Virus record (IMG/VR): IMGVR_UViG_2913167280_000006
Coordinates: 1-34,274 of that record
Source: a virus
Taxonomy: Duplodnaviria; Heunggongvirae; Uroviricota; Caudoviricetes
Length of the DNA stretch: 34,274 nucleotides
Reading direction: 5' to 3' (one strand)
The notes below the pieces were generated by a model. That model made no database searches. It worked only from the letters and a program-made list of their open reading frames with translations, and was not told where the DNA came from. How positions within the stretch are numbered: position 1 is the stretch's first letter; every line of letters begins with the position of its first letter. Both the position numbers and the translations under genes were made by a program. Shown piece by piece: positions 9,363 to 11,941 of the stretch.

Positions 9363-9500
9363 TTATTTATCCCACCAAGTTCCGTATCTATCTATCCAGT
9401 TACACCAATCATCGACACTCCATTTTGTTGTGTCGCATTTTGGCAATTGGCATGAATATCTACCTTCTTTGTAAAGTCGGCGTTTGATTTTCTTGAGCAT
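9363..9500 (-). CDS. Small Cys/Trp-rich hypothetical protein (45 aa)
   Basis: MLKKIKRRLYKEGRYSCQLPKCDTTKWSVDDWCNWIDRYGTWWDK; GAGGTGG ribosome-binding site; lies directly downstream of N. Confidence 0.3.
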   Translation of the reverse strand: MLKKIKRRLYKEGRYSCQLPKCDTTKWSVDDWCNWIDRYGTWWDK

Positions 9501-9507
9501 GACCACC

Positions 9508-9840
9508 TCAATCGTAATAAGCTGGAATTGATTTTCCGCGTTGCTTCTGGCGGCCTGAACAGGTCACACCCATTTCACTGCGTGGCTTGCTGTACCATGT
9601 GCGCTGATTCTTGCGCTCAATACGTTGCAGGTTGCTTTCAATCTGTTCGTGGTATTCAGCCAGCACCGTAAGGTCTATCGGATTCAGTGCGCTTTCTACT
9701 CGTGATTTCGGTTTGCGATTCAGCGAGAGAATAGGGCGGTTAACTGGTTTTGCGCTTACCCCAACCAACAGGGGATTTGCTGCTTTCCATTGAGCCTGTT
9801 TCTCTGCGCGACGTTCGCGGCGGCGTGTTTGTGCATCCAT
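9508..9840 (-). CDS. N: Antitermination protein N (lambda type)
   Basis: From the internal Met: MDAQTRRRERRAEKQAQWKAANPLLVGVSAKPVNRPILSLNRKPKSRVESALNPIDLTVLAEYHEQIESNLQRIERKNQRTWYSKP..., near-identical to lambda N as I recall it; nutL lies just upstream. Confidence 0.85.
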   Translation of the reverse strand: MDAQTRRRERRAEKQAQWKAANPLLVGVSAKPVNRPILSLNRKPKSRVESALNPIDLTVLAEYHEQIESNLQRIERKNQRTWYSKPRSEMGVTCSGRQKQRGKSIPAYYD

Positions 9841-9997
9841 CTGGATTCTCCTGTCAGTTAGCTTTGGTTGTGTGTGGGAGTCGTAGTCCTGAACGAAAAC
9901 ACCCCGCAATGGCACATTGGCAGCTAATCCGGATTCGCACTTCCGGCCAATGCTTCGTTTCGTATCACACACACCAAAGCCTTCTGCTTTGAATGCT

Positions 9998-10030
9998 GCC
10001 CTTCTTCAGGGCTTAATTTTTAAGAGCATC
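9998..10030 (-). promoter_or_regulatory. nutL (boxA plus boxB)
   Basis: Minus strand reads GATGCTCTTAAAAATTAAGCCCTGAAGAAGGGCAGCA: boxB hairpin GCCCTGAAGAAGGGC with a boxA-like CTCTTAA. Confidence 0.8.
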
Positions 10031-10039
10031 ACCTTCATG

Positions 10040-10151
10040 GTGGTTAGTGCGTCCTGCTGATGGATTAAAATATACCTACAGGTAAAACTGCTGTCTATAC
10101 CTGTAGGTAAATAAAATTGATGTGAGAGTTTACCTGCTTGAATTTTCAGGT
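10040..10151 (-). promoter_or_regulatory. Leftward early promoter (PL-like) with operators
   Basis: Palindromes TACCTACAGGTA (10073..10084) and TACCTGTAGGTA (10098..10109), plus TACCTG-n10-CAGGTA (10130..10151); candidate -35 TAGACA and -10 TATATT on the minus strand. Confidence 0.55.
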
Positions 10152-10171
10152 AATTAATTTTTTGGATTGAT

Positions 10172-10195
10172 ATAAAAAAGCCCGCTTTGCGGGCT
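10172..10195 (-). terminator. Intrinsic terminator ending the cI operon
   Basis: AGCCCGC-TTT-GCGGGCT hairpin followed on the minus strand by T6. Confidence 0.55.
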
Positions 10196-10206
10196 GAAAG
10201 GAGATG

Positions 10207-10521
10207 TCAGAAGCTATTTGGATTGCTTGGCCATTGCGGCAATTTTGATTCTACTGGGGTGTGTTTGGGTTTGAGTCCGTTTAAGTAGTCAAGGCGCTCA
10301 ATGGCGCATTTATACATAGCAATCTGCTCTGATGACATGTCGTCGTATGACATGCCTTTGAACTTTTTAATTATCGATTCTGCCTCATGTATAAGATGCT
10401 TCTTCCTCATGAGTTCAGCTGTATGCTTAGAGCTTACAGGAGATAACTTTGCCCATATGAAGCAGATGATTACAACAGCGACTACTATGCCGGGTATAAA
10501 CATTTGCTGCTTTATCCTCAA
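10207..10521 (-). CDS. Small membrane protein cotranscribed with cI (rex/sieB position); candidate superinfection-exclusion protein
   Basis: 104-aa ORF whose ATG overlaps the cI stop (ATGA); hydrophobic segment FIPGIVVAVVIICFIWAKL; terminator downstream. Confidence 0.55.
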   Translation of the reverse strand: MRIKQQMFIPGIVVAVVIICFIWAKLSPVSSKHTAELMRKKHLIHEAESIIKKFKGMSYDDMSSEQIAMYKCAIERLDYLNGLKPKHTPVESKLPQWPSNPNSF

Positions 10522-11204
10522 ACTTTTGGCAGATCGTCCTGGTCTACGTACCTGGTGTGTTTCACAATAGCTGAAACAAAATGCATTTTATCAACTTCTT
10601 CAACAGGAAGAGTGATTGGGCGGTGATCACTGTTTATGCTACTAAACTGATAATCACCGTCTCTTGTTTTGTTCATGATCTTTATCATGTTGTGACCGTC
10701 TTTGGTCCTTACAAAGACTTCATCACCTGGATGTACTGGCGTATTTGGTTCAATAACAACATATTCTCCTGACTGAATCCTTGGCCACATGCTGTCACCC
10801 TTAACCTTCAGACCGTAAGCATCTTTATCGCCGCTGTAGATGCTTAACCAACCGGATCTGAATTCAATCATATCCACTGAGCCATCAACTCCCAAAACGG
10901 CTTCACCAATTACCGGAACAAAACCCGCACGAACGTTACCCGCAAACTCAAGATGGTCTGTAGCTCCAGCTTTACCATCTACAAGCATGTCCATCCATCC
11001 GCGTGGGAGATTAAAAGATTTTTCAATTAGTTCCATCATATCGTCAGCAATGCGTTTTTTTCCGCTTTTTCCTTCCGGATACAGCATTCTGGAAACGTAT
11101 GATGGTTCCCTTTCTATTCGACGAGCCAACTCTGAGGCCTTTCCATTACAGAATCGGTCTCTTATCTCTATCAGCCTTAGTCGTCTTTGTTCGTATTTAT
11201 CCAT
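10518..11204 (-). CDS. cI: CI-type prophage repressor (N-terminal HTH, C-terminal S24 LexA-like autopeptidase)
   Basis: 228-aa ORF with the GDSMWP serine motif and a later Lys; divergent from cro across an operator region. Confidence 0.85.
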   Translation of the reverse strand: MDKYEQRRLRLIEIRDRFCNGKASELARRIEREPSYVSRMLYPEGKSGKKRIADDMMELIEKSFNLPRGWMDMLVDGKAGATDHLEFAGNVRAGFVPVIGEAVLGVDGSVDMIEFRSGWLSIYSGDKDAYGLKVKGDSMWPRIQSGEYVVIEPNTPVHPGDEVFVRTKDGHNMIKIMNKTRDGDYQFSSINSDHRPITLPVEEVDKMHFVSAIVKHTRYVDQDDLPKV

Positions 11205-11220
11205 GATTTAATTCTATCTT

Positions 11221-11300
11221 TGATTACCTGCCGGTAAATAACCTATGGGTATTGATTTGCTTTTTACCTACAGGTAAACTCACCTTATTCAACAACGGGA
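11221..11300. promoter_or_regulatory. Right operator and divergent promoters (PR, PRM)
   Basis: Operators TACCTGCCGGTA (11225..11236) and TACCTACAGGTA (11265..11276), with a weaker third site about 11241..11252; PR-like -35 TTGATT and -10 TAAACT; GGAGAT ribosome-binding site before cro. Confidence 0.6.
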
Positions 11301-11312
11301 AGGAGATAGCAA

Positions 11313-11543
11313 ATGGAAGAACTCCGCTTGTATCTGAACTCCCTTTCACTGGAAGAGCAGAGAGAATTTGCCACCAAGTGCGGAACTTCTATCGGCTATT
11401 TGAGGAAAGCACTTAGCCGTAATCATGAATTGGGCGCAGCACTTTGTGTTCTGATTGAGAAGTTCAGCAATGGTGAAGTGACTCGCAAAGACCTTCATCC
11501 GGTTGATTGGGAAAGCATCTGGCCTGAATTAATGGCCGCTTAA
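11313..11543 (+). CDS. cro: Cro-like lytic repressor
   Basis: 76-aa ORF with an HTH-like segment (ATKCGTSIGYLRKALS), first gene rightward of the operator. Confidence 0.6.
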   Translation: MEELRLYLNSLSLEEQREFATKCGTSIGYLRKALSRNHELGAALCVLIEKFSNGEVTRKDLHPVDWESIWPELMAA

Positions 11544-11659
11544 GTTATTAACGCTCTTACACATCCCCGCCCTGAAAAAGGGCATTACCAGAAACAAATC
11601 TCTATGGTTTTGCGTTTCTTTGCGAAGCCAACTCTATCTAATCATTAAGGAAATTATCT

Positions 11660-11941
11660 ATGGGTACTATTGCAACTAAAAGCAAGAAAGCGGCTCGCAT
11701 CGAGTCAGCCTTGCTGAACAAACTGGCACTGATGGGGCAGAAGACATTCGCTCGCGCGATGGGGGTTCCGGAATACCAGGTAAGCCGATGGAAGAATGGT
11801 TTCTTCTCGCAGGTAAGCATGATGCTGGCTGTTCTGGAATACGGAATCGAAGACGATGAAATGGCTGAACTGACTAAGCGGCTTGCCGATTACCTGACAA
11901 AAGAAAAAGCCCCGAAGAACGGCGAATTCTTCGAGGCCTGA
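11660..11941 (+). CDS. cII: CII-like transcriptional activator
   Basis: MGTIATKSKKAARIESALLNKLALMGQKTFARAMGVPEYQVSRWKNG..., resembling lambda CII (RIESALLNK..., SRWK). Confidence 0.8.
   Translation: MGTIATKSKKAARIESALLNKLALMGQKTFARAMGVPEYQVSRWKNGFFSQVSMMLAVLEYGIEDDEMAELTKRLADYLTKEKAPKNGEFFEA

Follow-up and report, generated by a model that had tools for sequence, protein, structure and literature searches.

In phage lambda, the Rex system pairs RexA, a sensor, with RexB, a multi-pass channel; the sieB gene of lambda and P22 lies in the PL operon, beyond N. Among the genes found in the interval between cI and N, a recognised hotspot, are rexAB and bstA (PMC8585504). BstA, from phage BTP1 and other prophages, is the product of a lysogen-expressed defence gene encoded directly after the prophage repressor, presumably under its promoter (PMC8585504). 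A defence-related small RNA, svsR, has also been described at the 3' end of cI in the lambdoid prophage NC-SV (PMC12803456). At the inner membrane, SieA is a protein of 162–164 aa that spans the membrane with three helices and has an FxRYPxEAxxFNK motif predicted to be cytoplasmic (PMC10883804), and gp15 of HK97 is a small inner-membrane exclusion protein that blocks genome entry without touching the receptor (PMC3594210). Here we describe orf98, a small gene following the repressor of a coliphage mEp043-type prophage, and compare it with these systems.

The window, the whole 34,274-nucleotide stretch that was analysed, contains a lambda-like prophage in tRNA-Thr(CGU), adjoining proA. The tRNA gene (1369–1444), downstream of proA, directly adjoins an integrase gene (1459–2622), which places the prophage at the thrW attachment site. 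From the terminase to the tape measure, the ORFs follow a lambda-like layout, judged by ORF size and order only. The immunity region is that of mEp043, with 98.8% identity to the window over positions 10000–11300, and reads on the minus strand OR, PRM-like promoter, cI, orf98, terminator, OL/PL, and N (Table 1). The exact matches to the operator palindrome, four across 34 kb, all fall within the OL and OR clusters; cI and orf98 are therefore the sole genes inside the immunity region. The cI mRNA is probably leaderless, because the PRM-like -10 element ends just short of the cI ATG; the cI mRNA of lambda is itself leaderless.

An earlier reading of the sequence alone (the sequence-only reading) had placed a gene at 10207..10521, coupled to cI and followed by a terminator. 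The ORF is present, on the minus strand and immediately after the S24-peptidase cI, and so is the terminator. The terminator, AGCCCGCAAAGCGGGCT plus a T-run (10195..10179), is a strong intrinsic one that begins 11 nt past the orf98 stop, and its sequence is unchanged across the four aligned relatives. The gene shares its operon with cI, as had been claimed, and this operon ends at the terminator ahead of OL/PL. Given this layout, orf98 should be expressed in the lysogen.

Table 1. Features of the immunity region and its flanks, in coordinates of the window.
Feature	Position	Strand	Details
orf98, 98 aa, PHROG 10450 member	10207..10503	-	ATG 10503-10501, stop TGA 10209-10207
GAGGA Shine-Dalgarno of orf98	10515..10519	-	overlaps cI stop TGA (10520-10518)
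In-frame TTG, probably unused	10519..10521	-	overlaps cI stop (TTGA, 10521-10518)
Single N-terminal transmembrane helix, FIPGIVVAVVIICFIWAKL	10444..10500	-	codons 2-20; predicted by hydropathy; AF2 helix 5-47 spans it
cI repressor, 228 aa	10518..11204	-	S24 peptidase C-terminal domain; mEp043 immunity type
Intrinsic terminator of the cI-orf98 transcript	10169..10195	-	lambda timm analogue
OL operators, TACCnnnnGGTA	within 10069..10143	-	at 10073-10084, 10098-10109
Third OL element, wider inverted repeat	~10120-10143	-	spotted by eye in the sequence
PL-like promoter	10097..10069	-	TAGACA-17-TATATT
OR operators, three TACCnnnnGGTA	within 11211..11276		at 11225-11236, 11240-11251, 11265-11276
PRM-like promoter	11204-11238 region		TTTACC-16-TAGAAT; -10 end = 11211, 7 nt ahead of cI ATG (11204)
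N antiterminator	9508..9840	-	lambda-type N36 arginine-rich motif; first PL-operon gene

It should be noted that the mechanical ORF for N (9508–9972) gives 154 aa from an upstream GTG, and that the lambda-type N (MDAQTRRRERR...) has 110 aa and starts at 9840. This N closely resembles that of lambda, yet the immunity region differs from lambda's, a typical mosaic joint near nutL; the adjacent positions 10000–10076 match many lambdoid phages. The location of svsR within the cI of NC-SV would correspond to the 3' end of cI in the window (10518–10600). A small RNA reading of the region found no support, as an Rfam scan of 9400–11700 detected no RNA family above chance.

The sequence-only reading took orf98 to start at an ATG overlapping the cI stop codon, with a product of 104 aa. 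The overlapping codon is in fact a TTG, the first ATG lies 14 nt beyond the stop, and comparison with relatives shortens the predicted product to 98 aa. We place the start at ATG 10503 because four lines of comparison agree on it. The 98 positions of the PHROG 10450 profile align with residues 7–104 of the 104-aa form; the one RefSeq call of orf98 among the listed matches (WP_000470488.1) is 98 aa long; and in the distant relatives every N-terminus reads M/V-[YFW]-I-[PS]. Finally, a Shine-Dalgarno-like motif precedes the conserved start in all 11 loci compared (the window and 10 diverged relatives), and 7 of these 11, the window counted, have no in-frame start further upstream. The 104-aa form starting at TTG was rejected on the starts of the relatives and these missing in-frame alternatives. 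In mEp043 itself, a GTG occupies the start position. As for the claimed translational coupling to cI, the close spacing stands, with a 14-nt gap, a Shine-Dalgarno sequence lying over the cI stop, and the GAGGA 11 nt upstream of the ATG; the overlapping codons do not.

To assess conservation, 34 close loci were compared: 28 from IMG/VR contigs and the others from mEp043, from complete E. coli genomes, and from the single GTDB species representative in which a scan found the locus. All 34 carry an unbroken orf98, so that the loss or breakage in close relatives named beforehand as speaking against the gene was not seen. Among 12 DNA haplotypes, the segregating changes in orf98 comprise 10 synonymous and 8 true non-synonymous changes, plus the change of the start ATG to GTG. 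The pN/pS ratio is about 0.20 for orf98 and about 0.10 for cI, with a binomial p = 0.0009 against neutrality over the 34 loci. In a search of 5,426 complete E. coli genomes, all 52 that carry the window-type cI also carry orf98. Judged by these comparisons, orf98 is a genuine gene under purifying selection. The exact protein is found on 481 contigs, and hundreds of others encode close variants; the name given is 'hypothetical protein' throughout. PGAP/RefSeq leaves orf98 uncalled in 29/30 listed complete E. coli genomes, and K56-43-un alone has WP_000470488.1. GenBank calls at the equivalent of 10150–10560 range from 43 to 115 aa, some of them mislabelled 'S24 family peptidase, partial'; the 43-aa call in E. 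coli DEC12D, considered as a disrupted copy, was rejected as an annotation artefact, its DNA being identical to the window. In one contig (L040, IMGVR_UViG_2513237219_000004), a 1-base insertion in an A-run at about codon 47 frameshifts cI and leaves orf98 unbroken; the insertion may be an error of sequencing, or the repressor may be defective.

The only family matched by the orf98 product is PHROG 10450, of unknown function (E = 1e-54, profile positions 1–98), which is also matched by 15/15 aligned relatives. Scans of Pfam and NCBIfam with the product and its relatives returned nothing significant, PADLOC-DB v2 gave 0 families at E <= 1, and a PDB sequence-profile search gave only E > 2. Foldseek comparison of the AlphaFold2 (AF2) model with BFVD and PDB reached a best E of about 0.8, a comparison that says little given how simple the fold of a helical hairpin is. 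A word-indexed single-sequence protein search recovered near-identical copies only. An exhaustive HMMER search of 1.84 billion representative proteins gave ten matches, eight of them small family members; the other two, proteins of ~1,300 aa aligned over 5–9 short stretches at 19–35% identity, were set aside as probably spurious. No chromosomal, non-prophage homologue was found among these 1.84 billion representatives. A profile search of a 5.8-billion set gave 24 proteins, and related DNA loci were collected using subfamily alignments. The named members come from Escherichia, Salmonella, and the Enterobacter cloacae complex. This is firmly a small, enterobacterial family, confined to prophage and phage contexts in the loci examined. 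These comparisons revealed no resemblance in sequence or fold to a characterised exclusion or defence protein, and the database names of all members are 'hypothetical protein'.

Family members occur in two habitats. The sequence-only reading had proposed a search for homologues beside the repressors of other prophages, and such homologues were found. Two family members (P0006 and P0007) and the copies on two IMG/VR loci (L047 and L048) are 34–43% identical to the orf98 product and begin 3–5 nt past the stop codon of an S24 cI sharing 84% identity with that of the window. Where the contigs reach, cro, cII, the operators, and N are arranged as in the window, and the orthologues in Enterobacter-type immunity regions occupy the same slot directly after cI. 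At these loci, the orf98 protein diverges far faster than the adjacent repressor, as the 34–43% against 84% identity indicates, and its place is retained.

The second habitat is in P22-like phages. At 31 of 32 P22-like loci, a homologue (~27–35% identity) lies between the tailspike gene 9 and the ejection gene 16, the interval that is the sieA slot on the P22 map, and a sieA homologue was detected at 0/32. These homologues converge on gene 16, from which some tens of nucleotides separate them, and they are on the mnt strand where mnt exists, sometimes immediately after it. No mnt, arc, or ant homologue was detected at L012, L014, and L066, and L051 retains nothing of these beyond a 21-codon ant fragment. 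Scans for promoters and terminators near the copies in P22-like phages gave nothing informative. The exception among the 32 (L006, 5449–6747) encodes P0009, which has 114 aa and is the most divergent homologue; it belongs to an apparent P22-like prophage remnant and lies directly beside genes for T6SS Hcp and a Tlde1-domain protein. In phage N7 (ORF16 and ORF15; L002, 3008–3848) and at L049–L055, two genes of unknown function are found between mnt and the family member, one encoding a 115-aa protein with CxxC...CxxC and the other a product of 170 aa that has a hydrophobic helix in its middle. Since other family-bearing loci lack these two genes, they are not obligate partners.

The 38.1-kb P22-like phage genome IMGVR_UViG_2563366933_000009 encodes both paralogues (L019, 4001–4294; L068, 4001–4318). 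The cI-linked copy follows an mEp043-type cI and is 100% identical to the window protein, and the second copy lies in the sieA slot beside gene 16. This shows that the mEp043-type immunity module circulates in podoviruses too, and a genome with both paralogues suggests that their specificities are non-redundant.

The orf98 product is predicted to be a small single-pass inner-membrane protein. As the sequence-only reading had it, one N-terminal hydrophobic helix is followed by a charged remainder: the Kyte-Doolittle value over the 19 residues of the helix is 2.53, the next-best window reaches 0.05, and the remaining 78 residues include 12 K/R and 9 D/E. The topology prediction it had called for gave, by hydropathy, one transmembrane helix in 15/15 family members, located at residues 1–21 and starting within the first three residues in each. 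None of the 15 has K/R ahead of the helix, and all have 2–6 in the 15 residues after it. Because of this distribution, the N-terminus is predicted to be outside and a helical-hairpin domain of ~75 aa cytoplasmic, with the positive-inside rule alone setting the orientation. The TTG start, if used, would add MRIKQQ, with two positive charges before the helix, and would favour the opposite orientation.

An AlphaFold2 model built on a 14-sequence alignment (pLDDT 77.8) consists of a helix at 5–47, which comprises the membrane span plus an extension, a helix at 58–76, and an extended tail. The transmembrane sequence is variable across the family, and the invariant residues are K34, I38, E40, A41, M56, C66, A67, L71, W91, and P92; C66 is the sole invariant cysteine and has no partner. 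A lipoprotein or a Sec signal peptide was rejected, as 15/15 members lack a K/R n-region, the cysteine in the transmembrane helix is not conserved (it is replaced by F in P0002), and C66 is unpaired.

By its position and protein architecture, orf98 is a good candidate for a gene that protects the lysogen against other phages. We propose that this lambdoid prophage of the mEp043 type carries orf98 as an accessory ('moron') gene within its immunity region and that, on the basis of gene position, architecture, and evolutionary rate, the protein would be made constitutively in the lysogen. The product would insert in the inner membrane through its N-terminal helix, leaving 1–2 N-terminal residues in the periplasm and a helical hairpin of ~75 residues with its W-P tail tethered to the cytoplasmic face. 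The lysogen would then be protected against superinfecting phages, most probably by a disturbance of genome delivery at the inner membrane, the mode of action proposed for P22 SieA and HK97 gp15. The targets might be incoming ejection or tape-measure proteins, or an inner-membrane host factor that they use, and the rapid divergence together with the two paralogues in one phage may reflect differing target specificities. Such a lysogen-expressed exclusion by an entry block at the inner membrane is our tentative reading, held at a little below even confidence, because both habitats are classical exclusion or defence slots, the family and sieA are mutually exclusive, divergence is fast, the paralogues are paired, and the layout resembles that of gp15. 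More tentatively still, these proteins might form a new exclusion family, unrelated in sequence to the known ones, that substitutes for Rex in mEp043-type phages and for SieA in P22-like phages, blocks delivery from the cytoplasmic face, and has paralogues with distinct target ranges. Against an entry block, slot-sharing is guilt by association, as the same slots hold non-defence genes too, and a conserved domain predicted to be cytoplasmic is unexpected for a protein blocking a periplasm-to-membrane channel; the SieA conserved motif, likewise predicted to be cytoplasmic, counters the latter objection.

Other explanations have to be weighed against an entry block. Since the slot after the repressor is common to rexAB and bstA, both abortive-infection systems, the tethered protein might instead sense a cytoplasmic infection cue, oligomerise, and depolarise or permeabilise the inner membrane, killing the cell before phage release in the manner of Rex. 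The predicted cytoplasmic domain would be well sited for sensing phage products, and the transmembrane helix is strongly hydrophobic. We nevertheless consider this unlikely: a single helix and a 75-aa hairpin offer no recognisable sensor or enzymatic domain, no partner gene is present (cI and orf98 are alone between OL and OR), PADLOC gave no match, and the P22-like relatives replace an entry blocker, SieA. Equally, the protein could serve lysogenic conversion outside defence, modulating a host transporter, sensor kinase, or protease as MgrB, AcrZ, and SgrT do, and so altering host physiology or gut fitness. Its architecture is typical for small regulatory membrane proteins, the prophage slots that it uses also hold fitness genes, and many isolates of E. 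coli, Salmonella, and Enterobacter carry it. However, a search of 1.84 billion representatives returned no chromosomal non-prophage homologue, and the very fast divergence relative to cI and the two paralogues found in one phage fit an arms-race target better than a conserved host protein, which makes such a role improbable in our view.

The linkage of orf98 to cI in 52/52 genomes and across 84%-identical cI variants, and the frequent position of its relatives after mnt in P22-like phages, could also mean that it regulates the lysogeny or induction of its own phage, being kept near cI and mnt because it sequesters or modulates an antirepressor, RecA, FtsH/HflKC, or the repressor at the membrane. 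This is very unlikely, as the gene is present without mnt, arc, or ant at three P22-like loci and with just the ant fragment at a fourth, the family accompanies two unrelated repressor families, and orf98 is intact beside the frameshifted cI of L040, although that frameshift may be a sequencing error. As to the possibility that orf98 is a chance ORF filling the spacer that separates cI from the terminator, the window does hold many chance ORFs of similar size, and RefSeq/PGAP passes orf98 over in 29 of the 30 listed complete genomes. The PHROG match, the conservation at 27–43% identity in two genomic contexts, a pN/pS of 0.2 (p = 0.0009), a conserved Shine-Dalgarno sequence and start, and 0/34 disrupted loci contradict this explanation, which is essentially excluded.

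If orf98 is truly an exclusion gene, a very small, single-gene, and easily transferable module would join the inner-membrane entry blockers SieA, gp15, and Imm, to our knowledge a short list whose mechanisms are still unsolved. The two habitats, the series of orthologues at 27–43% identity, and the two-paralogue phage would then form a ready specificity panel for the mapping of recognition. Otherwise, orf98 is one further uncharacterised prophage moron. In either case, the annotation deserves attention, as 29/30 listed complete E. coli genomes are without a RefSeq call and the exact protein occurs on hundreds of assemblies.

By sequence, orf98 belongs to no Rex, BstA, SieA, or gp15 family, and PHROG 10450 is its only assignment. 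Of the 'rex/sieB position' given to it by the sequence-only reading, the rex part holds, as orf98 is in the rex slot on the cI transcript, and the sieB part does not: SieB of lambda and P22, compared here by position alone, is encoded in the PL operon downstream of N, and orf98 lies upstream of PL. With BstA, orf98 shares the position directly downstream of the repressor; no PADLOC model matched orf98. HK97 gp15 and the orf98 product are both small and begin with a transmembrane helix, which leads into a charged helical tail. Gp15, which is moron-encoded and prophage-expressed, differs in its length of 62 aa, in its place in the tail operon, where it has a promoter and a terminator of its own, and in its chromosomal YebO relatives, whereas the orf98 family has no chromosomal relatives among 1.84 billion representatives; comparison of gp15/YebO with the orf98 product gave an hhalign probability of 0.4% and no Pfam match. 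The likeness to P22 SieA is one of slot and compartment. The distant orf98 homologues lie where P22 has sieA, between genes 16 and 9, to the exclusion of sieA (0/32 with sieA), and SieA and the orf98 product are alike inner-membrane proteins with a conserved part that is predicted to lie in the cytoplasm. The orf98 product differs from SieA in having 98 aa and one transmembrane helix, and the two gave no BLASTP alignment and an hhalign probability of 0.8%. Lambda rexA-rexB, like orf98, are on the cI transcript ahead of OL/PL, are coexpressed with the repressor, and involve a membrane component. As the sequence-only reading had recognised, orf98 is a single small protein unlike RexA/RexB, with one gene, one helix, and no PADLOC match: one 98-aa single-pass protein set against a two-gene system. 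Thus, lambda reads cI-rexAB-timm-OL/PL-N and the window reads PRM-cI-orf98-terminator-OL/PL-N, with orf98 replacing rexA-rexB.
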